58,134 nucleotides of DNA from positions 1 to 58,134 of the forward strand of contig CAYITJ010000001.1 of assembly GCA_964366435.1 (NCBI GenBank), written 5' to 3'. Of this stretch, positions 2,991-20,344 are shown one piece after another. The stretch comes from an uncultured Candidatus Saccharibacteria bacterium (GTDB lineage: Bacteria > Patescibacteriota > Minisyncoccia > Phycocordibacterales > Phycocordibacteraceae). Below the pieces are notes generated by a model. That model worked only from the letters and a program-made list of their open reading frames with translations, made no database searches and was not told the origin of the DNA. The position numbers were made by a program, and so were the translations under genes. Within the stretch, counting starts at the first letter, position 1. The number at the start of each line of letters is the position of its first letter.

Positions 2991-3063
2991 GGGCCGTTAG
3001 CTCAGTTGGTAGAGCATCTCATTTGCAATGAGAGGGTCGCAGGTTCGAATCCTGTACGGTCCA
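2991..3063 (+). tRNA. tRNA-Ala (anticodon TGC)
   Basis: It folds as a 73-nt cloverleaf. The anticodon loop is tttgcaa, the G3:U70 Ala identity pair is present, the T-loop is ttcgaat, and no CCA is encoded. Confidence 0.95.
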
Positions 3064-4683
3064 CATTCGTTCACTTTTTGCCTCGAAAGAGGCAATTTGT
3101 GTATATTCTTCCTCACTATTTAGAGGTTCTAATATTCCCAAATCGCCATTTGCGACCCTAGGGTACTTTATTAGAACTTCTACAGGCGTCTCTACTTGGA
3201 AAGTAAGTACGCCCTGGTCCAAGACATGCTCGGTTCCAAGGGAGGCGATAATAGCTCTCCGCTTTTCAAAGCTGCCGTTCTTGAATTCCTTGCTTGCCTT
3301 CTCAGCAAAGGTTAGGAGTCTGTCAGCATCCTCTGTCCAGTCGAACGGGGTAATCACACCACCAGTCAGATAGGGCTTCAAAGCCTCTATTTGCTCCTCG
3401 TAGGACTTTTTCTTTTCGGTGAACATGGATATATCAACACGTCCAAGCATGTGTGCATCGACTAAGTTTCCGAGCATAAGCTGAAGCTCGTCATGTTTTG
3501 TTTGGTGAATGTTTTCGATAGCGGTCTTATCCAACTCCTCTCTATCGAACTCCTTTCGTACTTCCTTCATTGCCCAGGCATGGAACTCTGGTGATATCTG
3601 TATGGATGATAGAAAGTCCTGCATGGATTCTTCCAAACGATCCTCACGGACAGATTTCTGTTCGCAATTCTTGTCTACCTGACCAGTACAACGGTAGTAG
3701 GAGTAATTATGGATGTTTCCATTCTTTTGCTTCTTGGTCTTCTTCTCACAAGTTATACGCGCTCCACATCCACCGCAACGCATTAGTCCCATGTATGCAA
3801 ATTTCTGCTTCAATCGTTTTGGAGCATTCTTCTTGAGTATTTTCTGTATGGTCTGGTATTCATCAAAAGTGATGAGAGGCTTGTGGGTTCCTTTAATCCA
3901 AATCCTCTCCTGTTTACCGTTAGCATCCTTCTTGCTCACGGGATACTGAAACTTCCCGTAAAAGAAGGGATTCTGCAAAATCTTGTACCAGGCTGATTTG
4001 GTCAGCTTAAGCCCGCGAGGATTCTTCTCGGTAGGTCGTGTACGAAGTCCCCATTCTTCCGTAGCAATCTCCAAAACCTGCGGAGCGTTATGTGTTCCGG
4101 TAAGCATGCAGTCAATCATCTTTCGTATGATTGGAGAGCGTACAGGGTCAGGGTAAATAAACTCCTCTCCCTTATTACTGCCGTTGCTATTCAAATATCC
4201 TAGAGGGGCAGAGCCAGGTCGTCTTCCGCTTTCTGCTTTGGTTCGCATTCCTCGCGTGACATCTTTACTGAGGTTGAGACTGAACTGGTTCGACATGCCA
4301 AAGTGCATATATAGAAGGAGCATGTCGCTATCTGGGTAGTAGTCCCCATCGTCAGTCTTCAGGTGTTTTATGACTCCTTGTTGAAGCTTCCAAGTAATCC
4401 AACCACCATCAACAGGATTACGGGCAAGACGGTTAATCTTCCAACAGACGATGCCTTGAACATCACCAGATTCAATATCTCGTTTCATGTCCTCAAAGAA
4501 TGGCCTGCCTGGTATCTTGGCAGACTTCAACTCCTTATATGTCTTGGTGATGCGTAGTCCTTTCCCGATACGCTCAATTTCCTTGAGCTGGTCAGGAATT
4601 GAGTTCACCTGCTTGTCCTTGTCATCCGTAGACTTGCGAGCGTAGGCTACATATTTAATTTTGGATGTGTCTAATACTTGCAT
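3019..4683 (-). CDS. large serine recombinase (integrase)
   Basis: The catalytic region reads YARKSTDD and INRLARN. A recombinase domain (PLGY) and a zinc ribbon (CGGCGARITCEK..YYRC) follow. The last 15 codons are antisense to the tRNA-Ala 3' half. Confidence 0.9.
   Translation of the reverse strand: MQVLDTSKIKYVAYARKSTDDKDKQVNSIPDQLKEIERIGKGLRITKTYKELKSAKIPGRPFFEDMKRDIESGDVQGIVCWKINRLARNPVDGGWITWKLQQGVIKHLKTDDGDYYPDSDMLLLYMHFGMSNQFSLNLSKDVTRGMRTKAESGRRPGSAPLGYLNSNGSNKGEEFIYPDPVRSPIIRKMIDCMLTGTHNAPQVLEIATEEWGLRTRPTEKNPRGLKLTKSAWYKILQNPFFYGKFQYPVSKKDANGKQERIWIKGTHKPLITFDEYQTIQKILKKNAPKRLKQKFAYMGLMRCGGCGARITCEKKTKKQKNGNIHNYSYYRCTGQVDKNCEQKSVREDRLEESMQDFLSSIQISPEFHAWAMKEVRKEFDREELDKTAIENIHQTKHDELQLMLGNLVDAHMLGRVDISMFTEKKKSYEEQIEALKPYLTGGVITPFDWTEDADRLLTFAEKASKEFKNGSFEKRRAIIASLGTEHVLDQGVLTFQVETPVEVLIKYPRVANGDLGILEPLNSEEEYTQIASFEAKSERMWTVQDSNLRPSHCK
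3078..3098 (+). terminator. hairpin with GNRA loop downstream of the tRNA
   Basis: The hairpin ttgcctc-gaaa-gaggcaa is followed by TTT. It lies inside the 3' end of the recombinase ORF on the opposite strand. Confidence 0.4.
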
Positions 4684-4846
4684 AGGGTGATACGAGGTCG
4701 ATGTCAGATTCGAGAATGAGAGATTTAAGTTGGATTATTTCCTGTATGAGTTCCTCACGAGACAGGTTAGGCAGGTTCCCAATGTAGTCTGCTAGCTGTG
4801 CTTCTAGGGCAGTGATTCTATCCATGGGGCTTTGGTTGCTTGCCAA
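4655..4846 (-). CDS. hypothetical small protein upstream of the recombinase (possible accessory or directionality factor, speculative)
   Basis: The 63-aa ORF overlaps the recombinase start by 29 nt and has helical-looking sequence. No motif was recognised. Confidence 0.3.
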   Translation of the reverse strand: MASNQSPMDRITALEAQLADYIGNLPNLSREELIQEIIQLKSLILESDIDLVSPYASIRHIQN

Positions 4847-5006
4847 CCGTAATAGTCAGCTTTCCACGGGAGTACTTTACGAAGGCTACTTTTCCGTCCT
4901 GGAACTCACTCTTGAGCATGAGTTGATTCGCATACCAGAGTGGCTCGAACTTAGAGGGAATGTCAGTGAGCTTTTCACTCGATACCACCAATTTACGACG
5001 AGGCAT
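4818..5006 (-). CDS. hypothetical small protein
   Basis: The 62-aa ORF overlaps the next ORF by 29 nt. No motif was recognised. Confidence 0.25.
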   Translation of the reverse strand: MPRRKLVVSSEKLTDIPSKFEPLWYANQLMLKSEFQDGKVAFVKYSRGKLTITVGKQPKPHG

Positions 5007-5081
5007 ATTGGGAAAGTAATTCCATATATGTCAATCGTATTAGGCGTGCACGACATGTACATAGGTACTGCGGAGAAGTGT

Positions 5082-5572
5082 TTACAGCCAGACTTCCTCT
5101 TCAGGTCTCTTGCGACAATCATGCTCGCACTCGCAGCAAGACGGTTTCTCTCTACGACTAATGTTTAAGGAGAACTGGTTAGCCATACCGAAGTGGAGAT
5201 AGAGCATGAGCATGTCGGACTTAGGTGTGTAAGTACCATCCTCCGTAATGAGTTCCTCTATTACACCTTGCTGGAGTTTCCAAATAATCCACCCTCCATC
5301 TATTGGATTGCGAGCAAGTCTATTGATTTTCCAGACGATAATAGATTTAGCCTCCCCGTCTTCTATTGCTTTCTTCATCTCCTCGAAGCCAGGTCTCTCC
5401 ATTTTCTTTGCGCTGGCTGTATCGGAAAACGCGAGAGTTTCATCAACTTCGTACCCGTGCTTTTAGCGAGGGCTCGAATGATGTGGTTTTGTTCCGTCAT
5501 GCTTGCTTGCATGCCTTTGATGTCATCTTTCGAGACACGAGCGTAGAGTGCTACTTTTGGTTTAATGTTCAT
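5082..5572 (-). pseudogene. serine recombinase remnant (frameshifted and truncated paralog of 3019..4683)
   Basis: Two overlapping ORFs make it up. VALYARVSKDD is a resolvase N-terminus. SIIVWKINRLARNPIDGGWIIWKLQQGVI..LMLYLHFGMANQFSLN is near-collinear with the intact recombinase. The recombinase and zinc-ribbon domains are missing. Confidence 0.8.
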
Positions 5573-5576
5573 GATT

Positions 5577-5747
5577 TTAGGTGGTTAGTTTCTTAATGCG
5601 TTTATGATTCTTCTTACGGTAGACACTCAGGTAGAGGTTGAGGAGAGTTCGTGCTTTCCGTTCCAAGTCTTCTTGGGATAGGTCTTTACCAAACTCCCAT
5701 TTGTAGATGTCATGGAATTTAGCAAGACTCCTTTCACTGACAGCCAT
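5577..5747 (-). CDS. hypothetical 56-aa protein (below the ORF-track cutoff)
   Basis: Hand translation gives MAVSERSLAKFHDIYKWEFGKDLSQEDLERKARTLLNLYLSVYRKKNHKRIKKLTT. Its ATG overlaps the stop of the PrimPol gene (TAATG), suggesting coupling. Confidence 0.4.
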   Translation of the reverse strand: MAVSERSLAKFHDIYKWEFGKDLSQEDLERKARTLLNLYLSVYRKKNHKRIKKLTT

Positions 5748-7567
5748 TAGTAAGGTGGCTCAGTGTCGTCTTCAGTGAGTGAGGCAGGTTCGAGGTGGTA
5801 CTTGTTCTTCTTTCCCTCCTTCGTAATCGTTAAGGTTCCTTCTTTCACCATGTCCGAAAGTGCCTGTACGATATTGCGCGTTCCTATCTCCGCTTCGTCC
5901 TGGACGGCTTTAATAATCTCCTCCTTGGTGGAGTCGTCTTGTGAGAGAAAGGTGGTGATGAATGGCTTTGCTTCAGCCTTCTTCACGACGTACTCCTCAA
6001 TCGGCGCGTAGCGAAGTTCGATAAGACCCTTCTCAACATCCAAGTCTTGAGTGAGAACCATTTTGAACTTCGGCTGGCTTGGTCCTCGTCGGGACTTCAC
6101 ATGCTCGATTTCAATGTTCTGTACTGCGTGGGTGTTGTCTTTCTTCTCAACGGTGATGTGGGAATCAAGACGACCAGAGTAGGCAGAGGAACCGCGAAGG
6201 CTCTGTGCTCCTCCAGGAGCACCCATGGCACTCTTTCTGTGGTGATGGATGAAGAGCACTGTCGTCCCAGCAGCTACGAGTTTCTGCATGCCTTCGAGGA
6301 CTTTCTGTGCTCCTTCGGCAGAGTTCTCATCCTGGCTGTGAATTGCCGCGAACGGGTCAATCATGACAAGTCCTATCTCCTGCTCGCGAATAGTCTTGAG
6401 AAGAAGGTCGATATCCTTCTCGTTGTCGAGCTTGAATCCGTTGAGACAATAGAAGTAGATAGGGAGTTCAGCAGAATAGCCGAGTAGCTCCAAGCGGCGG
6501 CGTTGTTCCCATGCGCCCTGCTCCTCATCTACGATGAGTACTTTCCCTTGCTTCGTTCGGAAGTATCCGAGGAAGGATTCTCCCGTTGCTACTGACTTTG
6601 CAAGGTGGAGCATGAACCAGCTCTTTCCACTCCCAGGATGACCACTCAAAGCCGTAATGCCGTGTTCTGGTACGAGTCCATGAACAAGGAACTCTGGTCG
6701 TTCGGACTCAGGCAGATTCATGATTGCTGACATGGCTAGAAGGACACGAGGGGAGGAAGGTGTATCACCAACCTCCTTATCAAAATAGACAGTCCCTTCA
6801 TCCCCTTGGGCGTGTTGCTTCTGGGCGATTCCGCGAAAGATAGACATCACTTCATTCTCGGGAAGCGGCGGCTGGTTAGCAGACTCGTTCCAAGCATGAA
6901 GGAGAGGTAGGGCAACATCTTTCCAGTCTTTTCCTGGAAGGTGATGTAGGAGCTTTCCTGCGAGCTTCACTGCCGTATCGTGTCGCGTACCTTTGGTAGC
7001 TCCATCCAAGACTGCTTTCCAGTCGGTAGCTTCAAGGTCGTTCTTCTTACGATCATCTTCAATTTTGACGAGCCACTCTGGCATGGGAGCCAGTTCGGTT
7101 TCCAGTTCGAGAGGAGTAATCCACTCATAAGCTTTGCCTGTCGTGGGATGAATAGAAGGAGGTACTACGACGTAGCCTCCGTCTGCTTTCATGTCTCCAT
7201 GGATTCCAGAAGGAATGAGGCTTCCTGACTTAACGAAGTCCGTGTCCTTCGGGAAGTCGAAGAAATAGTGCCAGCCTCCGCTACCGGTACGGCTAACGGC
7301 TGTCGGCGGTATTTCAAAGCGGGTAGGGTCTTCGTCGTTCTCCAAGTCGAGAACGGCAAGTCCGTGGACGTATCCCGTGACCATTCCCAGTCCTGTGATT
7401 CGGTCTCCGTATGTGTTGAACCACTCCGTCATTTCCTCGGGCGTTGGGGCTTTGCCTTCCTGATACTCCTTCCAGGAAGGGATTACAGGAACCTTCCCGT
7501 TGAGAGGGATGACGGTTCGGCAGTCATCGAGGTAGCCGAGAGCTGCTTTAAGTAGCTCAGACTGCAT
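5747..7567 (-). CDS. bifunctional primase-polymerase (PrimPol) N-domain fused to a RecA/RepA-like P-loop ATPase (replication protein)
   Basis: PrimPol motifs are VIPLNGKVP, LAVLDLEN and RTGSGGWHYFF. The C-terminal part has Walker A GHPGSGKS and Walker B VLIVDEE. Confidence 0.85.
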   Translation of the reverse strand: MQSELLKAALGYLDDCRTVIPLNGKVPVIPSWKEYQEGKAPTPEEMTEWFNTYGDRITGLGMVTGYVHGLAVLDLENDEDPTRFEIPPTAVSRTGSGGWHYFFDFPKDTDFVKSGSLIPSGIHGDMKADGGYVVVPPSIHPTTGKAYEWITPLELETELAPMPEWLVKIEDDRKKNDLEATDWKAVLDGATKGTRHDTAVKLAGKLLHHLPGKDWKDVALPLLHAWNESANQPPLPENEVMSIFRGIAQKQHAQGDEGTVYFDKEVGDTPSSPRVLLAMSAIMNLPESERPEFLVHGLVPEHGITALSGHPGSGKSWFMLHLAKSVATGESFLGYFRTKQGKVLIVDEEQGAWEQRRRLELLGYSAELPIYFYCLNGFKLDNEKDIDLLLKTIREQEIGLVMIDPFAAIHSQDENSAEGAQKVLEGMQKLVAAGTTVLFIHHHRKSAMGAPGGAQSLRGSSAYSGRLDSHITVEKKDNTHAVQNIEIEHVKSRRGPSQPKFKMVLTQDLDVEKGLIELRYAPIEEYVVKKAEAKPFITTFLSQDDSTKEEIIKAVQDEAEIGTRNIVQALSDMVKEGTLTITKEGKKNKYHLEPASLTEDDTEPPY

Positions 7568-7796
7568 ATGCGGGAAGGTTTAGTATCTGGTCGGTCTCTT
7601 CGCTTATGCAGCCTCTAGCTTCAAAAGCCTGGCACTCCCTCATCCAAGCTGTGTACTTGGTCGGGTCGCGATAAAGTTCGTCTAGTTGTCTGGCAATGTA
7701 TGGTTCGTAGACCACGGTGTCGTTGCAAATATCATTCATACTTCGTTGGTTAATGAGTATGAGGAGAGAATGCAAAAACCGCTTCGGAGCGGTCAA
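7557..7796 (-). CDS. hypothetical small protein
   Basis: The 79-aa ORF overlaps the PrimPol start by 11 nt. An internal Met at residue 20 is an alternative start. Confidence 0.4.
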   Translation of the reverse strand: MTAPKRFLHSLLILINQRSMNDICNDTVVYEPYIARQLDELYRDPTKYTAWMRECQAFEARGCISEETDQILNLPAYAV

Positions 7797-7903: not shown

Positions 7904-8692
7904 TCATCCTTCTCGTACAGTGAGTAGTACTTTTCCGTCTTTCAGCGATAGGCTGATTCGTGCCTTCGATTCTGCTAGATATCGTTGTATATTTCCGACG
8001 ACATCACGGACTATATCTGCTGACTCTGCGAGTTTTTCAACTCGCGCGTCACGGCTGCTTATTAAGTCAGTCCTGTATGCGAAGTCCGCGAGGGCACGTC
8101 CATAGTTTCCCTCCTTGTCAGGATTTACGTCTCCTTTAACGAAGTGTTCACGGTCTTTCCAAAGTAGAGCGAAGATTTTGGCTGGACGCTCTTCGTCAAA
8201 TCGACGTGGCTTCAGTCCGAGAATAGAAATGGTGTTTGAGTCAAAGCTGAGCTTTTGACGACTCACAAACTGCGAAGACTGCTCAGGGTTATTTTTAGTG
8301 CAACTGACTTCACGAAGCTTCTTAAGCTTTTCGAGGTCAAGAACCTCAACAGGAAAAGATTTAAGGAAATCGAATCGTTCATTGGTCTCCAGATTGTGCA
8401 GATATCCCTGAGTTGCCTGAATAGAGTAGTTGGTCCCGTGTTTCTTCTCGTACTCCTGAAAGGTAGGGAAATGGGCGATTCCTTCCTCTTCCATGAAAGC
8501 TTTGAGGCTTTCTAAATTCAGTTCACTGTCGGAGGTATAGTCCTCCTTCTCCTCCCATGTCCTGACAAGAAACCAGGTTGAACTGGTCTGGATAGTAGGA
8601 TCGTCTATGTCCTCCTTCCTGTTTTGAATATCACGAAGATACCGACAGATGACAGGAGTGATTTTGAAAGGTGTTTTTCGTGTTTGTCCCAT
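7904..8692 (-). CDS. hypothetical protein
   Basis: This 262-aa ORF has coding-like composition. A terminator lies upstream and a promoter-like AT-rich region lies at 8693-8730. No motif was recognised. Confidence 0.6.
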   Translation of the reverse strand: MGQTRKTPFKITPVICRYLRDIQNRKEDIDDPTIQTSSTWFLVRTWEEKEDYTSDSELNLESLKAFMEEEGIAHFPTFQEYEKKHGTNYSIQATQGYLHNLETNERFDFLKSFPVEVLDLEKLKKLREVSCTKNNPEQSSQFVSRQKLSFDSNTISILGLKPRRFDEERPAKIFALLWKDREHFVKGDVNPDKEGNYGRALADFAYRTDLISSRDARVEKLAESADIVRDVVGNIQRYLAESKARISLSLKDGKVLLTVREG

Positions 8693-8728
8693 GCAATCGT
8701 ATACCTATAGTAATGCACGTTTGCACAG

Positions 8729-8752
8729 GAAAAACACCCTTCGTGAGGGTGT
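8729..8752 (-). terminator. intrinsic terminator for the 8820..9326 gene
   Basis: The minus strand reads acaccct-cacga-agggtgt followed by TTTT. Confidence 0.6.
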
Positions 8753-8819
8753 CTATCCGTGGGGGTAATAAGAAACCATATCCATACCCCTAATCGTGTC
8801 TTAGAGAGGAACGTAGGGA

Positions 8820-9326
8820 CTACTGGGAGGCTTCTACGTCCGTTTTCTTGTATACCGTTTCCCCGTCGATGCTTATTGCATAGACCGTGAGCTTATCGTC
8901 CCCGACGTACTGAAAGAGGACTGACCACTCACTACGAATCATTGCTCCGAATCCGTTCTGAGAATCAACGTAGGAATCTACCTTGAAGACATCGTCTTTC
9001 CCTCGGACTATCGTGGCGTGTGAGGACGAAGGGAACTTTGCTGTCGAAGGAGACTTGAGAGCTTTCAAGATGACTCCCTGGGCATCTACAAATACTTCTG
9101 TATCTGAATGCTGTTCCGGCTGGGCAACTACAGGGGGAGGAACGACGTTGTCATTCTTGGGAGTTGTACTAATTGCTTGCCAGGCAACTAGGACGAAAAT
9201 TATCAGGACAATGATTGCCGTAATGCCTTCTCCTTTCGTTATCTGCTTTTTCACCTCTGGAACATCGTCTTTGGGTGTATTCATATCGTATCGAGCGATT
9301 TGGATAATTCCAGGTGGGTAGCACAA
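8820..9326 (-). CDS. membrane-anchored hypothetical protein (likely true start at 9284, MNTPKDD)
   Basis: It has one N-terminal TM helix (ITAIIVLIIFVLVAWQAI) and then a soluble domain. A repeat motif at 9288-9302 sits just upstream of the internal Met. Confidence 0.6.
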   Translation of the reverse strand: MCYPPGIIQIARYDMNTPKDDVPEVKKQITKGEGITAIIVLIIFVLVAWQAISTTPKNDNVVPPPVVAQPEQHSDTEVFVDAQGVILKALKSPSTAKFPSSSHATIVRGKDDVFKVDSYVDSQNGFGAMIRSEWSVLFQYVGDDKLTVYAISIDGETVYKKTDVEASQ

Positions 9327-9575
9327 AACCCGCCACCAGGAGAGACCGAAGTCTCCTATATGAGTTTCCCCATATAACGCTCGATACGCCCTGATGACGG
9401 GTTTTCTGGTATCGAGCGATTTGCAGCCATGCCAGAGCCGAAGCTGCTGGTTTAGGCCGACTGTTATTCAGTTGTCCTGAGATTATATAACATACTCCGG
9501 AGCAAGTCCTCGTCCTAGGTGCTTGCATTTCTATGAGGTCGTAATATCATATGTTCATAGAAATTATCAAAACAT

Positions 9576-10316
9576 ATGACTCCTACCCCAAACACAGAAG
9601 AGAAGGGCAAGAAAACCCTTCCTCCATACCTCAGTCTTGCGAAGCTACAGAAGCTAATTGAAGTAATTTCGCGTACGAACTTCAAGGTGGTAAATGCCAC
9701 TGTCCTTAAGAGTGATTTCGGAGCGACAGATGCTTCAATTGCTGTTGGTACGCTACGATTCCTTAACCTCATAAACGACCAAGGAGTTCCTACGGAGAAC
9801 ATAAAGAAATTCCATTTGACTGGAGGTGAACGTGCCGCTGCCATTCAGCCAATAGTCAAAGAGGCTTATTCTGAACTGTTTGCAGCTACGGTTGATGGAA
9901 AGCCTGAAGAATTGGCTCAAGACCGACTAGAAAACCTTTTCGTTACGAACTACAACGTCGTTCCCCGCATCGCCACGCCTGCTTCCCGTGCCTTTCTCTT
10001 TCTATGTGGCGAGGCAGGTCTGAAAGAAAAGCAGGTGCGAGCTCCGCGTGTCGTAAATCCTGACGGACAGAAACGCACCCCGAAGAAAGCACCACCGGCA
10101 GCTAAATCTGGACAGGAAGAGCCTAATCACACTCAGTACAGTGGTACATCAACAACAGTCCCGTTTGCGAGTGGCTCCATAAAACTTACGATCCCTCTTG
10201 ATGTGCTCACAAACCTTGAATTGCTTGATGAGTACAAGAAGGTCATCGGAGCTCTTACTGCATTCGGGGAACAGTATCTAGCAACAAAAGTAAAAGATGA
10301 GCCAGCAGGAGAGTAG
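9576..10316 (+). CDS. hypothetical protein with a wHTH-like N-domain (DUF5343-like, from memory)
   Basis: It is the first gene of the plus-strand operon. It carries PPYLSLAKLQKLIEVI..LRFLNLINDQGVPTE followed by a Lys/Pro-rich linker. Confidence 0.6.
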   Translation: MTPTPNTEEKGKKTLPPYLSLAKLQKLIEVISRTNFKVVNATVLKSDFGATDASIAVGTLRFLNLINDQGVPTENIKKFHLTGGERAAAIQPIVKEAYSELFAATVDGKPEELAQDRLENLFVTNYNVVPRIATPASRAFLFLCGEAGLKEKQVRAPRVVNPDGQKRTPKKAPPAAKSGQEEPNHTQYSGTSTTVPFASGSIKLTIPLDVLTNLELLDEYKKVIGALTAFGEQYLATKVKDEPAGE

Positions 10317-13946: not shown

Positions 13947-14705
13947 ATGGATTCAAGGAAACTTCTCCCCATATGTAATAGCCTTCTTGAGGCATACAAA
14001 ACAGGAAAGCTTGGACAAACTGTAATGCCTGAGGATTCAAATCCAGGATTTAAAGATACCGAAATAGAAGAACGCCTCTCGTACTTCACGTTTCCAATGG
14101 CTCTCAATTACCAAAGAGATAGCTATAAACTTTGGGAGGCAGCACTCAAGACCTTTCAAGATTCAGAGACTAACTTCGTGTTTGACGTAAAAGAAGTATC
14201 CTCACGTTCCGAAGAGCAAGTCAGACTGGCTTTAATGAAATACAAGCTTGCTCTACAGCCAAACAAGCACGTAAGCACGTGGCGTACCATTGCTAAGACC
14301 ATACACGAAAACTGGGGTTCGTTTGAGAATCTTATAAAGGCTACTGATAGAGATTTCCTAACCCTTAAGCAACTCTTACAGGTTGATTACAAGAAGGGGT
14401 TTCCATACCTCTCAGGTCCAAAGATATTTAACTATTGGTCTTTCATTATTAGTACCTACGGAAGTATCAAGCTTAAAAACAGAGACCAGATAGATATTGC
14501 TCCAGATACCCACATCACTCAGTGCTCTGTGCGAATTGCCGTCATAACACAGGAGGAGGCAGAGAGGCTATCAAAAGAGCAGATATCAACTCGATGGAGA
14601 GAATTACTTGTAGACTCAGGTATTGACCCAATAGATATGCATTCACCACTTTGGTTTTGGAGCAGAAACGGATTCCTCTACGAACTTCCACGAGGTCCTG
14701 TTTAA
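13947..14705 (+). CDS. hypothetical protein (possible HhH-type DNA-binding or base-excision fold, low confidence)
   Basis: It is the 252-aa last gene of the operon. The motif GFPYLSGPKIFNYW is reminiscent of HhH-GPD hairpins, with no firm assignment. Confidence 0.55.
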   Translation: MDSRKLLPICNSLLEAYKTGKLGQTVMPEDSNPGFKDTEIEERLSYFTFPMALNYQRDSYKLWEAALKTFQDSETNFVFDVKEVSSRSEEQVRLALMKYKLALQPNKHVSTWRTIAKTIHENWGSFENLIKATDRDFLTLKQLLQVDYKKGFPYLSGPKIFNYWSFIISTYGSIKLKNRDQIDIAPDTHITQCSVRIAVITQEEAERLSKEQISTRWRELLVDSGIDPIDMHSPLWFWSRNGFLYELPRGPV

Positions 14706-14722
14706 GATTAATAAAGTAAAGA

Positions 14723-14750
14723 GGTTCTAATCTGTTATCAAGAAATGCCC
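14723..14750 (+). repeat. diverged copy of the GGTTCTAAT..CAAGAA(A)TG motif
   Basis: ggttctaatctgttatcaagaaatgccc compares with ggttctaatatcgtgcaagaatgaccac at 14833-14860. It lies 18 nt after the operon stop codon. Confidence 0.4.
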
Positions 14751-14835
14751 AAAAGGGACGTAGAGTGAGTCAGCATTAGTCCCAAGAGTCTACGCACCGT
14801 AAGAAATGTATAGGTTTTACTTGGTGGAAATAGGT

Positions 14836-14860
14836 TCTAATATCGTGCAAGAATGACCAC
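14836..14860 (+). repeat. left half (X) of the interrupted insertion site
   Basis: tctaatatcgtgcaagaatgaccac is 24/25 identical to 20260-20284. Confidence 0.75.
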
Positions 14861-14864
14861 TTGG

Positions 14865-14894
14865 AAAATCTCTTGTGAAAACAAGGGATTTTTT
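14865..14894. terminator. bidirectional GNRA-loop hairpin at the left end of the insertion
   Basis: The hairpin aaaatctcttgt-gaaa-acaagggatttt has flanking A and T tracts. Confidence 0.5.
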
Positions 14895-14898
14895 CGTT

Positions 14899-14945
14899 CA
14901 CCGTACGAAAGGTTCGAACCCTGACTCGTGCTCTACCAACTTGTC
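14899..14945 (-). pseudogene. tRNA-Ala-derived fragment lacking the anticodon arm
   Basis: The minus strand reads agttggtagagca, 13/13 identical to the tRNA-Ala D-region, joined directly to gagtcagggttcgaacctttcgtacggt. That second part resembles the variable loop, T-arm and acceptor of tRNA-Ala at 2991-3063. Confidence 0.5.
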
Positions 14946-14946
14946 G

Positions 14947-15273
14947 CTAATCTACGTCTAGGCAGTTGTCTCCGCAGAGGATCTCGAACAGGTGGTTTTC
15001 GAGATCGCACACGGCAGCCTCAGTGTCCCGCAGGAGTTCGCGAATTGCGCGTCCTGAGAAGAGGAGATCGAGATGGATATCGCGGTGATCCTCGGGTGAC
15101 ACCAGGTCCAGTAGATTGCGCGGTTGGCGCATTTTCATGGGCAGATGGTTGGGTTGATAGGTCGGACGCTCGACCAGACGTCCAACCGTATGTTCGACTA
15201 GAATAGGGATTAGCACACGGCTGCTTTTGCTCCGAATTGGGGCGCTATCGCAACGATCAACTAAGTCGTGCAT
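14947..15273 (-). CDS. hypothetical protein (uncertain, since GC-rich DNA gives spurious ORFs)
   Basis: This 108-aa ORF is divergent from the KAP NTPase gene. No motif was seen. The opposite-strand ORF 14928..15206 is Arg-rich and less protein-like. Confidence 0.3.
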   Translation of the reverse strand: MHDLVDRCDSAPIRSKSSRVLIPILVEHTVGRLVERPTYQPNHLPMKMRQPRNLLDLVSPEDHRDIHLDLLFSGRAIRELLRDTEAAVCDLENHLFEILCGDNCLDVD

Positions 15274-15282
15274 AATCTAACT

Positions 15283-17004
15283 ATGGGAATCGACGCGTTT
15301 AAATCCGAGATCGACCGCTTTCTCGCATCCTCTGATGCGGAGGTGTTGGTAATTAGCGGAAAGTGGGGTGTCGGTAAGACGTTTGCTTGGAACAAGTTCC
15401 TCCGCGAAGCGCGGGACCGACTCAAAGGAATTGCGCTTGAGCGATACGCTTACGTTTCGCTTTTTGGCCTGGGCGACCTAGGCGAGGTCCGCCAGGCGGT
15501 GTTCGAGAACACAGTCGGCAGGGCAAAGGCGGGCGAGGTCGCGGATCTCACGAGCCTTGAAAGTGGGATCAAGACAGCGACGGGAGGCTGGCGAAAGGCA
15601 GCGGGCCTCCTAAGGATGGCCAGCCCTCTCGCTGACTATGCGGCCGCCATCGACAAGATCGGCTTCTTTAGTGTGCGCAAACAGGTTGTCTGCATTGACG
15701 ACCTTGAGCGGAAGAGCGGCTCGCTGGAGATGCGAGACATCCTCGGGCTTGTTTCGTTCTTGAAGGAGCAGCGAGCCTGCAAGGTTGTCGTGCTCCTGAA
15801 CGATGAACAGCTGGGGGCTGACGACGCAGAGTTTCGCATTCAGCTTGAGAAGGTAGCGGATACCACAATCCGCTACCAACCGACGCCGGCCGAAGCGGTG
15901 GAGATTGGCGTCGACAGGTCAAAGCCTCATCATGAAGTGATCGTTCAGGCATGTTCAGCGTTTGGAATTGTGAACATACGGACGATCAAGAGGCTTGAGC
16001 GGCTTTCAGCCCGGCTCAGTGAGATACTTGCCGGCTACGATGTGCGCGTGATCCGGCAAGCGGTACACACTGCCTCCTTGTTTGGATACACGAAGGTGCA
16101 GCCGGACCAGGCTCCAACCATAGAATTCCTAAAGACCTATGGTCCCTACGATGGGCTTCTTGCTCGCGACAATCAGCCACTTTCTCATCCCGAATGGCGA
16201 GAGATGCTCCGACAGTACGACTTCGGATCGATCGACGAGTTCGATGCAGTTTTACTTGAAGGCGTCGAAGCAGGGCACTTTGATCCGGCTAAGCTCAAGC
16301 GTGCAGCCGATATCGCCAGCAGGCGTCTACAACACGTCGATAATGAACACGCCTTTAGCGCTGCGTGGGAGCTGTACCACAACTCCTTTGGTGACAATCA
16401 AGCTGAGGTCACAGGCGCACTTGTCGCGGCTCTGCGCGCTGCTCCTTCGGTGGTAACCCCCACCAACCTTTCCGGAACGATCACACTGCTCAAGGAGCTA
16501 AACTGGGAAGGAAACATAGGCCAGCTCATCTCGGAATACATTGACGGGCGCGACGACGGTCGCGAATTCTGGGACTTGAATGAAAGTTCCTTCGGCGGTG
16601 AGGTGCGAGACTCTGACGTGCGCAATGCGTTTGAGGCGAAACTGGCGACATTTGAAGACGGTCGTGATCCAGAGGAAGTGCTGAAGCGAATTGGTGAGGA
16701 GCGCGGGTGGGGGCGAGACGATGTTCGTTTCCTGTCTCTCCAGTCACCAGCGACTTTGCGCGAGATATTCAAACGGCTTTCGGGAACCGACTTTCACCGC
16801 GCGCTTCGCGGAGGTCTCATGTTCCGGAACATCCAGAACGCCGATGCCGAGATGCAACTGGTGACGTCGAATGTCGAGGCGGCGCTGAGGGAAATCGGCC
16901 AAGAGAGTCCGATCAATCTCCGTCGCGTGCGTCAGAAGGGGATACAAGTAGACGATCCGCCTCAGCCGCCGTCCAGTGCAGTTGGCGACCAGCAGGAAGC
17001 TTGA
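15283..17004 (+). CDS. KAP-family P-loop NTPase (no obvious TM insert)
   Basis: Walker A is VISGKWGVGKTFAWNKFL and Walker B is VVCIDDLERKSG..LGLVSFLKE, the characteristic KAP pattern. The start is set at the ATG at 15283; a GTG at 15268 is possible. Confidence 0.8.
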   Translation: MGIDAFKSEIDRFLASSDAEVLVISGKWGVGKTFAWNKFLREARDRLKGIALERYAYVSLFGLGDLGEVRQAVFENTVGRAKAGEVADLTSLESGIKTATGGWRKAAGLLRMASPLADYAAAIDKIGFFSVRKQVVCIDDLERKSGSLEMRDILGLVSFLKEQRACKVVVLLNDEQLGADDAEFRIQLEKVADTTIRYQPTPAEAVEIGVDRSKPHHEVIVQACSAFGIVNIRTIKRLERLSARLSEILAGYDVRVIRQAVHTASLFGYTKVQPDQAPTIEFLKTYGPYDGLLARDNQPLSHPEWREMLRQYDFGSIDEFDAVLLEGVEAGHFDPAKLKRAADIASRRLQHVDNEHAFSAAWELYHNSFGDNQAEVTGALVAALRAAPSVVTPTNLSGTITLLKELNWEGNIGQLISEYIDGRDDGREFWDLNESSFGGEVRDSDVRNAFEAKLATFEDGRDPEEVLKRIGEERGWGRDDVRFLSLQSPATLREIFKRLSGTDFHRALRGGLMFRNIQNADAEMQLVTSNVEAALREIGQESPINLRRVRQKGIQVDDPPQPPSSAVGDQQEA

Positions 17005-17042
17005 TGTCATTCGAGGACAGATAGGCGATTTCAGATTTACGC

Positions 17043-18233
17043 ATGTGGTTGACCCATCGAAGCAAAAGGTGCGCTGAACTCGATGATTGGGTTTTTCGCA
17101 GATTGTTGACCTTCTATCCGGAGGAGGAACTTCTCAGTCGTCCTGTGCTGGCAAAGTCACTTACGGATGGTGAGATTACGAAGGCGGATCTCCAGAAGGA
17201 GGCCAGCGTTCACTTCATCCCGTGGCAAATGTTTCTGCTGTCGAAGGACAAGCTCAAGGCCCAGTTGAGAAACATTGAAAGGGTGCGGCTGGACAAGATC
17301 CAGGTCGCCGAACTCTCAAGCCGCGCAGGTGGAGCCGGGCCGACGCCCTACCGGCTCATTGACCGCTACATTCGCACTCAGACTTTTCTAACGAGCACCG
17401 AAAGATACGATCCAAACCGGTTCAGCGGTTCGCTGAAAGGGCTGTCGGTCGAGCGATCAATCGGGCGGATCGAGGCGCACTTTGCAATAAATCGTGCCGA
17501 ACTTTGGGAAGCCTCTTCGAAGGAGAAGGCGCTGGAATATCTCATAGAACGGCTGGGGGACGGTCAGGTAAACGTGGCGCTCGGCACCTCGGAGGCGCGG
17601 CTGGTTCCCTCGTCGAAGAACCTTCGGTCGCTCTACAGGAATGTGAGCGGGTTCTGCCTGAAAGACGCCAGGGTGCCGTTCCTGTTTGTGAACATGAACA
17701 TGGCTGACGAAGAGGAGCCGGTTGGTCGCCGTCTCTATACGCTGACGCTCCTCCTCGTATTGGTTGGGCTCGGCGTCTTCTCCGTCACGCGCGACTGGAG
17801 GCCGGGACGGACCCCGCACCGAGCAAAGGACACGTACCTTCCTCATGCGCACAAGATCGTCTCAGAGTTCTTCCTTCCTAGCCCAGTCATAGCGGCCCAT
17901 CGTGGCCAGCAAGTTACGTCCGAGACCGTCCAAGAGGTCGCCACCCGATACAAGCTAACTCCAACCGCCGTGATCTATCGTTTCTGGAGGGAGAAGATCA
18001 TCACGGCGGCGGAAAGGGAGCTGCTGACGCAGCCTCCGGTGGCCATCAAGCGTCGGGCTCGGTCGCCCCGGATCGACAATGCAGTGCGCAAGCTCAACGG
18101 CCGGCTGGTCACTACTGCTGCCCAGAAAGCCTATGCTAGCGGCGCAATCACCGCGAACCAGGCACAGTACGTGTTGTTCGGAAGAATTAGCCGGAAGACG
18201 TGGCGCAAGTACAAGGCGCAATTGGGTCTATGA
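17043..18233 (+). CDS. ImmA/IrrE (M78)-like protein with a degenerate metal site (predicted pseudo-peptidase)
   Basis: FLFVNMN..GRRLYTLTLLLVLVGLG aligns to the usual RxRFTLAHELGHxxLH but without H/E/H. HAHKIVSEFFLPSP aligns to E.EAN.FA..fLmP. VATRYKLTPTAVIYRF aligns to the C-terminal helix of the family. Confidence 0.6.
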   Translation: MWLTHRSKRCAELDDWVFRRLLTFYPEEELLSRPVLAKSLTDGEITKADLQKEASVHFIPWQMFLLSKDKLKAQLRNIERVRLDKIQVAELSSRAGGAGPTPYRLIDRYIRTQTFLTSTERYDPNRFSGSLKGLSVERSIGRIEAHFAINRAELWEASSKEKALEYLIERLGDGQVNVALGTSEARLVPSSKNLRSLYRNVSGFCLKDARVPFLFVNMNMADEEEPVGRRLYTLTLLLVLVGLGVFSVTRDWRPGRTPHRAKDTYLPHAHKIVSEFFLPSPVIAAHRGQQVTSETVQEVATRYKLTPTAVIYRFWREKIITAAERELLTQPPVAIKRRARSPRIDNAVRKLNGRLVTTAAQKAYASGAITANQAQYVLFGRISRKTWRKYKAQLGL

Positions 18234-18676
18234 TTCGCATCCTGGACAACAATGCCCTCGATGCCCTGTACAAGAGCGCTCGCCGCTTGCGGCAGGAGCA
18301 CTGTTGCTATGTCCCTCCGGAGATTGTCGAGGAATTCACTGATGCTGACCGCGAAGAGAGTTGGCTGAGATCGCAGCCGTTGGTCAATCCCAGGATCGAT
18401 GAAGCGGATTTCCTTGCTCGCTACGCAATTCATATCAACCGATACAACGGCGTCTCATTCTACAATCAGAAGGGCTTTGGAGACGTTGCCATTCTGGCAA
18501 CGCTCGACATTCTTGTTGGAAGGCTTCCGTCTACTCGGGCACTCTCGCAGGAGCTTTTCCCGGAGGATCGAATTTTCTTGGTGAGTGACGATGGTAAGCT
18601 TCGGAAGGCGACTGCGAAGAACTTCGGAACCGATGTGACCGTTGAGACCGTCGAGGAGTTTCTATCGAGGTGCTAG
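18230..18676 (+). CDS. PIN-like nuclease-fold protein (DUF4411-like)
   Basis: Its ATG overlaps the upstream TGA (ATGA). Motifs are MIRILDNNALDAL, FGDVAILATL and FLVSDDGKLRKA, a PIN-like acidic-residue pattern. DUF4411 typically pairs with ImmA/IrrE genes. Confidence 0.6.
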   Translation: MIRILDNNALDALYKSARRLRQEHCCYVPPEIVEEFTDADREESWLRSQPLVNPRIDEADFLARYAIHINRYNGVSFYNQKGFGDVAILATLDILVGRLPSTRALSQELFPEDRIFLVSDDGKLRKATAKNFGTDVTVETVEEFLSRC

Positions 18677-18781
18677 CGGTAAGGCCGATGGGGGACGTAG
18701 ATGACTTTAGGGACGTAACGAGCCTCCTGACCGCATCTCTTGTCTGCGCTGAAGTTCGAACCTGGGCCCGAGCTGGTCCAC

Positions 18782-18823
18782 AAAATTAAAACCCCGATGC
18801 GCAAGCATTGGGGTTTTGATAAT
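18782..18823 (+). repeat. right half (W) of the interrupted insertion site, including a terminator hairpin at 18788-18817
   Basis: aaaattaaaaccccgatgcgcaagcattggggttttgataat is 38/42 identical to 20285-20326. It forms a 13-bp stem with a GCAA loop. Two stem differences between the copies are compensatory. Confidence 0.75.
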
Positions 18824-18832
18824 TTTGTAGGG

Positions 18833-18848
18833 CCGTACAGGATTCGAA
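18833..18848 (-). repeat. inverted copy of the tRNA-Ala(UGC) T-loop/acceptor segment
   Basis: ccgtacaggattcgaa is the exact reverse complement of 3043-3058 (ttcgaatcctgtacgg). Confidence 0.7.
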
Positions 18849-18973
18849 AGACGGAGGGGCGCGCTGAGAATCTCTTGAGCGAAGCAATTAGAGATTCCAA
18901 GTGCTCCTGGGGTGAAGACACGCGTAGTGTGTGGCCGAGTCCGGCCTGACGCACTTAACGAGTCTTCGACTTA

Positions 18974-20254
18974 GTGACGGGAGGCGAAAGCGTCTTCGCG
19001 TATCCTGTACGGTTCAACCCAAATAGGATACTTGCGTCTGGTGTGATGGAGTATAATCTTTCTATGAACATAGAAGACGCTGGAGGCAAGGGTCCTGAGA
19101 AGAAGGAACTTAGCGAGAATGAGAAAGAGTCCTTAATCAGAGGTACTCATTCATTCGATCAGTTGTATGCAGCTATAGATAAGATTGGCGCTTTTCAGGG
19201 AAGCCAAGAAACATTTGATGCGTCGCAACTCAGAGATAAGGTCGATCGTGCCCGAAGTGGCGCTATAGATATTACCTACATTACCCGTGCCCATGGGTTG
19301 CGGGAGACTGTGGCGCGCCTGCTTCAGTCCGCGACTTCAGATGAACAGGTAGTTACAGAAGAAGCTCCTGCGCTATCAAATCCAAGCGAGGAAGTGTCGG
19401 TGCCGACTGAAGCAGCATTAGCAGAGAGTCCTGAGTTGGAGGAAGCCCCCTTAGGTGGCTCAGCTATTGAAAGCCTGCCGCAGCAGGAAAAGCTTTCTGT
19501 CATTGATTTCACAGCCGAACAAATAGAGGATGCGAGGGAAGAGATGGAAGCAGAACTGCTCGAAAGGAAGAAAGTCGAGATAATTTCTAGGGCGGCCGAG
19601 GATGCTTCAAATGAACGTGTCAAGCAAATGGTTGTAAAGATAAATCGCAGCCTAAATGGCCGGGCTGAGGGTGCGAACGTTTGGGAAGGCGTTCGTGCTC
19701 AATTAGATCGGAGAGCTCAACAGGATTTGTCTTCACTTTTGCAGACCGTGCGTACTGAGGCTGAACCGAATTCCATCTTATCTCAAGTTGCTGCAGCGAT
19801 TGACAAGGATTATTCGACATCTCGAGGGGGTGTCGTGGACAACACCATTGCAGGGAGCCTTCTTTCCGAATATATTCAGGAACGCGGTACTGAACTTACG
19901 GGAGAGGAATTAGGAGAAGTTGAAGATGCTCTCCACCTGATTGGCCTATCTGCTCAACAGAAATTCTTTCAGTTCCAAAACGCGGAGCAGCTGAGGATTG
20001 TTGCACAAGCTCAGGAAGACTTAATTAGGTGTAACGATGAGTTTGATCCAGCGCGATCTGGGTTTTTTGAGTTGCGAAATGCTATGGAAAGTGCACGAGC
20101 TTCAATTCGGCTTGACTTGAACACTAAGCCAAACTATCAATATTCTCATCCAGAGTATTCAGTGAGAGATGGACACATCTTACGTGTTCTATCCAGCCTC
20201 CATACGATAGAAGCTCTGAAATTCCTCAAGGAACATGACATTGAAATTGAGTAA
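18974..20254 (+). CDS. hypothetical acidic protein (start uncertain; ATGs at 19046 and 19064 are alternatives)
   Basis: This long ORF of 426 aa has a Glu-rich central region and no recognised motif. The annotated 5' end overlaps the att-like repeat, so a later start is likelier. Confidence 0.6.
   Translation: MTGGESVFAYPVRFNPNRILASGVMEYNLSMNIEDAGGKGPEKKELSENEKESLIRGTHSFDQLYAAIDKIGAFQGSQETFDASQLRDKVDRARSGAIDITYITRAHGLRETVARLLQSATSDEQVVTEEAPALSNPSEEVSVPTEAALAESPELEEAPLGGSAIESLPQQEKLSVIDFTAEQIEDAREEMEAELLERKKVEIISRAAEDASNERVKQMVVKINRSLNGRAEGANVWEGVRAQLDRRAQQDLSSLLQTVRTEAEPNSILSQVAAAIDKDYSTSRGGVVDNTIAGSLLSEYIQERGTELTGEELGEVEDALHLIGLSAQQKFFQFQNAEQLRIVAQAQEDLIRCNDEFDPARSGFFELRNAMESARASIRLDLNTKPNYQYSHPEYSVRDGHILRVLSSLHTIEALKFLKEHDIEIE
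19002..19016 (+). repeat. direct repeat of the tRNA-Ala(UGC) 3' end (putative right att core of the island)
   Basis: atcctgtacggttca compares with atcctgtacggtcca at 3049-3063, a 14/15 match. Confidence 0.7.
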
Positions 20255-20259
20255 TCGGC

Positions 20260-20326
20260 TCTAATACCGTGCAAGAATGACCACAGAATTAAAACCCTAA
20301 TGCGCAAGCATTGGGGTTTTAATAAT
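20260..20326 (+). repeat. uninterrupted (empty) copy of the X|W insertion site, including a terminator hairpin at 20291-20320
   Basis: tctaataccgtgcaagaatgaccac|agaattaaaaccctaatgcgcaagcattggggttttaataat joins the X half seen at 14836 and the W half seen at 18782 across CCAC. Confidence 0.75.
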
Positions 20327-20344
20327 CGGGTATACTAATCCGTA

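Follow-up and report, generated by a model that had tools for sequence, protein, structure and literature searches.

Three co-oriented genes carried by a nested insertion in a 58,134-nucleotide stretch of DNA from an uncultured Candidatus Saccharibacteria bacterium (contig CAYITJ010000001.1; the whole stretch is called the window below) are read here, with moderate confidence, as two independent conflict modules that recombination has set side by side in one mobile cassette: a KAP NTPase on the one hand and a toxin–antitoxin (TA) or abortive-infection pair on the other. Gene A (15283–17004, plus strand; 573 amino acids from an ATG, with an alternative GTG start 15 nt upstream at 15268) encodes a soluble P-loop NTPase of the KAP family, gene B (17043–18233, plus strand; 396 amino acids) encodes a probable pseudo-enzyme resembling the ImmA/IrrE proteins (peptidase family M78), and gene C (18230–18676, plus strand; 148 amino acids) encodes a putative PIN-like nuclease. 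The stop codon of gene A and the start codon of gene B are separated by 38 nt, and the ATG of gene C overlaps the TGA of gene B as ATGA. An earlier interpretation made from the letters alone (the sequence-only reading) had described the same layout, which the open reading frames (ORFs) bear out, and had proposed that the three genes form one system in which the NTPase serves as sensor or switch.

Relatives of gene B were surveyed in 41 metagenome loci, with a KAP gene searched for within 6 kb, and relatives of gene A were surveyed in 80 KAP-family loci, each from a different species. No KAP gene was found near gene B in any of the 41 loci, neither gene B nor gene C was found near the KAP gene in any of the 80, and seven further independent contexts recovered by exact-protein look-ups contain the pair of genes B and C (hereafter B–C) and no KAP gene. 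In L001 the neighbours of B–C are an Eco57I/XhoI restriction–modification (R-M) system together with genes for a TIR protein and a serine recombinase, and in L003 they are genes for a patatin, a recombinase and an RNase T. B–C is surrounded by housekeeping genes in L004, separates hsdS from hsdR in L006 (at 8001–9649), adjoins genes for CHAT and SEC-C proteins in L012, which is from Brevundimonas, follows a Gabija-like pair of OLD-TOPRIM and UvrD genes in L016, and lies near a ubiquitin-like (Bil-type) cluster in L017. The pairing within the module is strict: gene C lies immediately 3' of gene B in all 33 metagenome loci with enough downstream sequence, the other eight loci ending within 151 nt past gene B, and 33 of 36 non-redundant loci show the ATGA overlap. 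B–C thus has the organization of an obligate, coupled two-gene operon by which type II TA systems are judged.

The trio of KAP, gene B and gene C was found again only in L018, which has in common with the window a three-gene cassette of about 3.6 kb (15199–18781, plus strand) with 90.9% nucleotide identity by blastn, in wholly different flanks. The two occurrences are taken to be one cassette seen twice, and so a single evolutionary event. The next-closest relatives of each module stand apart from the other module. The next-closest KAP gene after that of L018, 80% identical and located in L019, stands alone, and the next-closest B–C copy, 89% identical and located in L016, has the Gabija-like pair upstream and not a KAP gene. 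The L016 copy corresponds to 17035–18781 of the window (plus strand, 86.5% nucleotide identity), and the similarity breaks at 17035, 8 nt 5' of the start codon of gene B. From the absence of co-occurrence in both samples, the lone KAP gene of L019, the breakpoint in L016 and the single cassette of L018 it therefore appears that genes A, B and C are two modules joined recently.

A defence system of three components, whose KAP NTPase would sense infection or switch on the ImmA-like/PIN pair, finds some encouragement in the gene order itself, with co-oriented genes, the short interval between genes A and B and the preservation of the whole trio at a second genomic location. The three genes have no terminator-like site between them, and because the first such site is found only at 18785–18820 (plus strand), in the hairpin of the split host repeat just beyond the insertion, the genes are probably co-transcribed in the window cassette. 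However, the cassette at the second location is 91% identical to that of the window and counts as a copy of it, the closest relatives of the two modules are found separately, and the breakpoint falls directly before gene B. Conservation of the neighbourhood, by which the triad was to be judged, is thus confined to this one copy and does not extend across lineages, and together with the zero counts in both locus samples this speaks against the sensor-or-switch proposal. We consider the three-component system very improbable, and a functional link of gene A with B–C within this particular cassette equally so.

Gene A consists of an NTPase domain at approximately residues 18–235 followed by about 340 residues without known function. 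The Pfam KAP_NTPase profile (PF07693) matches residues 18–177 with 26.6 bits against a cut-off of 20, the motifs GKWGVGKT (Walker A) and CIDDLERK (Walker B) are present, and residues G26, G29, G31, K32, T33, D139, D140 and E142 show no variation among 37 sequences, all in line with the assignment in the sequence-only reading. The PADLOC profile PDC-S49 is matched with an E value of 3e-20, residues 23–207 aligning to positions 28–205 of its 624, and the C-terminal two thirds are left unmatched. The protein had been described as soluble, and indeed no transmembrane (TM)-like hydrophobic segment was found in a 19-residue Kyte–Doolittle scan (maximum 1.22); the TM helices that are typical of KAP proteins, though not universal among them, are absent. 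The family comprises 287 full-length homologues of approximately 560–575 amino acids, many of which carry PF07693. It occupies 473 places in species genomes, mostly in Alphaproteobacteria and Acidobacteriota and with some in Patescibacteria, and it occurs on 124 plasmid records. A conserved partner gene was sought in the 80 KAP-family loci and none was found, no cluster of neighbours occurring in more than three of them.

Phage defence has been shown for KAP NTPases that act as single proteins and carry a fused C-terminal region of unknown function (PMC13552941). EF_KAP and its relatives (PMC13552941), PifA and PDC-S49 resemble gene A in being single genes that encode a KAP NTPase with a long unknown C-terminal region, and they resemble its family in their variable neighbourhoods and in their occurrence on plasmids. 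Whereas EF_KAP is modelled with two TM helices, gene A has none, and its likeness to PDC-S49 is confined to the NTPase domain. Gene A is named here as a candidate single-gene defence protein, that is, as a putative stand-alone module. Two further observations concern its family: a homologue with 39% identity on plasmid pAt2 of Agrobacterium pusense (L141, 6814–7830) is directly followed by a TIR-domain protein, and the members from E. coli lie beside replication genes on non-mobilizable plasmids of about 110 kb.

Gene B has no match of its own in Pfam, NCBIfam or PADLOC, and an exact-sequence look-up found no record of the protein. Its relationship to the M78 family, which the sequence-only reading had proposed with the catalytic site inactivated, is nevertheless supported from several sides. 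Sub-threshold matches to Peptidase_M78 (PF06114) were obtained for eight of 27 gene B homologues, mapping to residues ~200–315, the best listed score being 21.2 bits (cut-off 22) and the best E value 6.5e-5. Comparison by hhalign of the gene B family with a genuine M78 protein from L017 gave 85% probability (E 6e-6) over 134 columns. The AlphaFold model of gene B (predicted local distance difference test, pLDDT, 84; predicted template-modelling score, pTM, 0.85) gave CapP (7t5t) as its only significant match in a Foldseek search of the PDB (probability 1.0), and phage IrrE proteins were among the top matches in a BFVD fold search (one of them at E 8.6e-4). No match at E ≤ 10 was found in the PDB by sequence search with the profiles of genes B and C. 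Remote homology and the predicted structure together support an ImmA/IrrE-like fold for gene B, located in a core of approximately residues 136–320, to which additional helical regions are attached at the N terminus (~1–120) and at the C terminus (~320–396); no database match was found for the N-terminal ~120 or the C-terminal ~75 residues.

In the hhalign alignment the HELAH motif of the L017 enzyme stands opposite LLLVL (residues 236–240) of gene B, and the EAN-FA-ELLMP helix of the enzyme stands opposite HAHKIVSEFFLP. When 1.84 billion representatives were searched with the profile of the family, 1114 relatives of gene B were returned at E ≤ 1e-3, which puts the family at about 1100 clusters at 50% identity. 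Strong full-length matches, at E ≤ 1e-30, numbered 125, and the relatives are mostly ~395–405 amino acids in length. In 126 full-length members the columns equivalent to HExxH are occupied by L/Y/F, L/M and L/C/S and never by His or Glu, and no correctly placed HExxH was found among 97 full-length family representatives, from which it would follow that the gene B family is an old, family-wide pseudo-enzyme and not the product of a recent inactivation. The flanking M78 motifs SG, P212, GR-x3-T and SEFLLP are kept.

Residues 231–249 of gene B (LYTLTLLLVLVGLGVFSVT) have a hydropathy of 2.17, which lies in the range of TM helices, and with the M78 matches in Pfam below threshold it could be argued that gene B is a membrane-anchored protein whose M78 likeness is spurious. 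However, in the alignment this segment corresponds position by position to the buried helix that bears HExxH in the genuine M78 protein, the flanking motifs of the family are retained, the model places the helix in a globular core, and CapP from the PDB and phage IrrE from BFVD are among the top fold matches. We therefore read the segment, from the alignment and the model, as a buried core helix that is strongly hydrophobic because the zinc-site residues have been replaced, and consider a membrane anchor very improbable. A resemblance noted by eye between residues ~34–66 of gene B and an Xre helix–turn–helix (HTH) was not borne out, hhalign against an HTH_3 protein giving a probability of 0.1%.

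The M78 fold is common to gene B and to the regulatory pairs CapP/CapH, ImmA/ImmR and IrrE/DdrO, CapP being the best match in the PDB. In CapP, ImmA and IrrE the zinc protease is active and cuts an HTH repressor, whereas gene B is predicted from its residues to be unable to bind zinc at the canonical site, and its partner is a putative nuclease instead of a repressor.

For gene C, a PIN-like fold is supported by the predicted structure and by the conservation of its acidic residues. The model has a pLDDT of 89, and a Foldseek search returned PIN domains of Rrp44 (E 5e-4, TM-score 0.57), HARP, PAE2754, VapC-1 (VapBC-1) and Utp23, with TM-scores of about 0.5–0.57 for the best PDB matches. Residues D6 (after strand 1), E35, D85 and D121 occupy the canonical PIN positions and do not vary among 14 sequences. 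Profile matches are weak: PIN_4 in four of 14 relatives (E 0.035) and PIN_6 in two of 14. The sequence-only reading had called gene C PIN-like and DUF4411-like, and only the first part of this description holds; DUF4411 (PF14367) gave no match at E ≤ 10 for the 14 family members or at E ≤ 1 for gene C itself, so by profile search gene C is not detectably a DUF4411 protein. Of the three family assignments, therefore, that of KAP is above the profile cut-off, that of M78 lies below it, in relatives of gene B, and that of DUF4411 has no profile match.

Pairs of a COG2856/DUF955 protein with a PIN or DUF4411 protein have been predicted as TA systems (Makarova 2009, PMC2701414; Matelska 2017, PMC5499597), and a three-component TA system has been predicted that consists of an Xre-HTH protein, a COG2856/DUF955 protease and a PIN-like toxin (DUF4411.1, COG2405 or PIN_14/20/26) (PMC2701414, PMC5499597). 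B–C resembles these systems, which are themselves predictions, in that an ImmA/IrrE-family gene lies directly 5' of a small single-domain PIN-like gene with predicted co-transcription, and in its patchy distribution, mobility and location in defence islands. In the COG2856–PIN systems, however, the protease retains HExxH and has a recognizable Xre HTH, either as a fused domain or as a partner protein, whereas in B–C the zinc site is lost family-wide, no HTH was detected by hhalign, gene B has additional termini without a database match and gene C has no PF14367 match. The best reading of these similarities and differences is that B–C would be an undescribed variant of the predicted COG2856-plus-PIN class. 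Compared with VapBC, B–C likewise has an upstream partner that overlaps a downstream PIN-fold gene of ~150 amino acids with four conserved acidic residues, and VapC structures are among the fold matches of gene C. However, VapB is a small (~70–90 amino acids) DNA-binding protein, whereas gene B has 396 amino acids and a pseudo-peptidase core, and unlike VapC, gene C matches canonical PIN profiles only weakly.

In the mechanism that we propose, B–C would be an autonomous, translationally coupled TA or abortive-infection unit. Gene C would be a metal-dependent PIN-like nuclease with an intact acidic tetrad, probably an RNase, acting as effector or toxin, and gene B, descended from ImmA/IrrE (COG2856) metallopeptidases with the zinc ligands all lost, would most likely be a non-catalytic partner that binds gene C and keeps it inactive in the role of antitoxin or sensor. 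Translational coupling would give a fixed stoichiometry of the two proteins, and infection, or loss of the element, would be the trigger that frees gene C. The toxicity of gene C, its neutralization by gene B and the trigger are suggested by the anatomy of the pair, its strict co-occurrence and its genomic company. In the lineage of the window, recombination would have joined the KAP module to B–C, after which the cassette of ~3.6 kb would have moved as one into the integrative element. The TA or abortive-infection proposal of the sequence-only reading is thereby retained for the B–C pair alone and not for the triad.

Type I R-M genes and recombinases make up the bulk of the gene families around B–C. 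The commonest neighbour is a large serine recombinase, in ten of 43 loci, followed by HsdR, in eight of 43. In L006, L113, L121 and L134 the pair fills the interval between hsdS and hsdR (at ~6000–7630 in the last three), and it adjoins hsdR in L103, L109 and L122. Genes for YgjP-like and DUF3800 proteins recur near the copies between hsdS and hsdR. PrrC is an anticodon nuclease encoded within the EcoprrI type I R-M locus, and the hsdS–hsdR gap is the position of prrC in that locus. B–C could accordingly be a guard module of type I R-M in the manner of PrrC, latent in the R-M complex and freed when a phage inhibits restriction. This likeness of position is accompanied by no relationship between B–C and PrrC in sequence or fold, type I R-M genes are nearby in only about eight of the 43 loci, and most copies, including those of the window, L018, L016, L001, L003, L004, L012 and L017, have no R-M genes of this kind beside them. 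Because most copies lack an adjacent type I R-M system, B–C presumably carries its own control in the form of gene B, and we regard a dedicated guard function as rather unlikely.

The association with recombinases bears on the mobility of the module. The window, L018 and L016 have in common a tail of 105 nt directly after gene C (18677–18781, plus strand, in the window; 13394–13498 in L018; 5794–5898 in L016) that ends in GAGCTGGTCCAC, and all three lose similarity directly past this point, 105 nt beyond the stop codon of gene C. From this terminus, shared in three unrelated flanks, the module therefore appears to have a defined right end. The tail holds two GGGACGT repeats and the palindrome GTTCGAAC. 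A gene for a large serine recombinase directly adjoins the tail in L016; the tail may be a recombination site.

It could also be that B–C is a regulatory switch of integrative elements, an analogue of ImmR/ImmA or CapH/CapP that controls excision or the expression of neighbouring genes, with gene B as a non-proteolytic anti-repressor and gene C as an RNA-processing factor. The descent of gene B from the ImmA/IrrE regulator family, the location of B–C directly beside large serine recombinase genes in 10–12 loci and the recombinase at the conserved right end in L016 are consistent with this. However, gene B is without the catalytic site that ImmA-type regulation needs, no conserved HTH repressor partner is found beside B–C, the pair is also found inside type I R-M operons and among housekeeping genes without a recombinase, and gene C keeps a full nuclease active site. 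A regulatory switch is consequently judged unlikely.

Several findings weigh against the reading of two independent modules, one of them a TA or abortive-infection pair. The gap of 38 nt between genes A and B without a terminator-like site, in both the window and L018, could reflect functional coupling in this one lineage, and the PADLOC match of gene A does not extend beyond the NTPase domain. The M78 assignment of gene B involves sub-threshold profile scores and modest Foldseek TM-scores of 0.28–0.38, a DNA-binding HTH was not detected in it by hhalign, and its size is large for a classical antitoxin. Finally, none of the collections searched (phage, plasmid and IMG/VR) contained B–C, which is unusual for addiction modules. 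A broader proposal, that B–C is an undescribed and widespread anti-phage or addiction family in which a zinc-less ImmA/IrrE scaffold serves as the sensor-inhibitor of a divergent PIN RNase, forming a portable retaliation unit for type I R-M loci (in the position of PrrC) and for the ends of serine-recombinase elements that has begun travelling with a soluble KAP protein here, is put forward tentatively, as a possibility to which we give clearly less credence than an even chance.

The cassette lies in a nested insertion of 3921 bp (14861–18781, with no strand assigned), whose borders are fixed by a repeat of ~78 nt. One copy of the repeat is intact at 20253–20330, and the other is split at 14860|18782 into a left half (14829–14860) and a right half (18782–18823); because these halves flank the junction, the 3921 bp are seen to have been inserted into one copy of the repeat, which carries the strong terminator-like hairpin mentioned above. 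The sequence GACCAC stands just before the left end of the insertion, and the right end is GTCCAC. The GC content of the insertion is 0.562 compared with 0.458 upstream and 0.485 downstream, so the block is foreign by composition. The mobile context and foreign composition reported in the sequence-only reading are thus confirmed, whereas its statement that the three genes are the whole cargo holds only in part; the genes are there, and 338 nt at the left end (14861–15198), of high GC content and not common to L018, lie outside them. A minus-strand ORF of 108 amino acids at 14947–15273, of which only the first 27 residues are common to L018, gave no match in a family search and is probably no gene, or a remnant.

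The ends of the insertion, which contain GTTCGAACC, seemed tRNA-like, and RNA genes at the borders were therefore considered and rejected: Rfam gave no match at the insertion ends at the gathering threshold or, on 14500–19200, at E ≤ 1, and ARAGORN found two tRNA-Ala genes in the window and no other tRNA gene, neither of the two being at the insertion borders. A pattern built from both insertion ends had no match beyond these ends and copies of them, a check that is circular.

The insertion is surrounded by an outer integrative element of low GC content (0.458 compared with ~0.53 in the rest of the window). The features of this element include a tRNA-Ala(tgc) gene found by ARAGORN at 2991–3064, a large serine recombinase of 554 amino acids at 3019–4683 (minus strand), the end of whose ORF overlaps the tRNA gene, and a Prim-Pol/PriCT/AAA_25 replication protein at 5747–7567 (minus strand), all in the region 2991–7567. 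A LOOT RNA (Rfam RF03000) was found within the element at 9341–9458 of the window (minus strand); it scores 73 bits, the gathering score being 46.4. The tRNA-Ala 3' end (TTCGAATCCTGTACGG) recurs in short copies, exact or nearly so, at 18833–18848 (minus strand) and at ~19003–19018 (plus strand), and these copies may be att-site remnants of earlier integrations. A gene of 426 amino acids at 18974–20254 was considered as a counterpart of the ~430-amino-acid gene that adjoins the recombinase in L001 and L016, but a comparison showed no similarity and the idea was dropped. Elsewhere, one soil contig (L140, 500–3700) carries B-like and C-like fragments on both strands that resemble two decayed inverted copies of the pair.

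In conclusion, a three-gene architecture of this kind would have been new, and the evidence that speaks against it spares the effort of testing it as such. Gene A may add a member without TM helices to the single-protein KAP NTPase defences, a class that was validated recently. B–C represents a widespread, unnamed family, absent from Pfam, NCBIfam and PADLOC, in which a PIN-like nuclease is strictly paired with a putative pseudo-enzyme of protease descent. If the pair proves to be toxic and neutralized, or to be anti-phage, it would provide a new antitoxin or sensor fold for PIN systems, and, if the proposed role is true, an example of a dead ImmA/IrrE protein in a new role.

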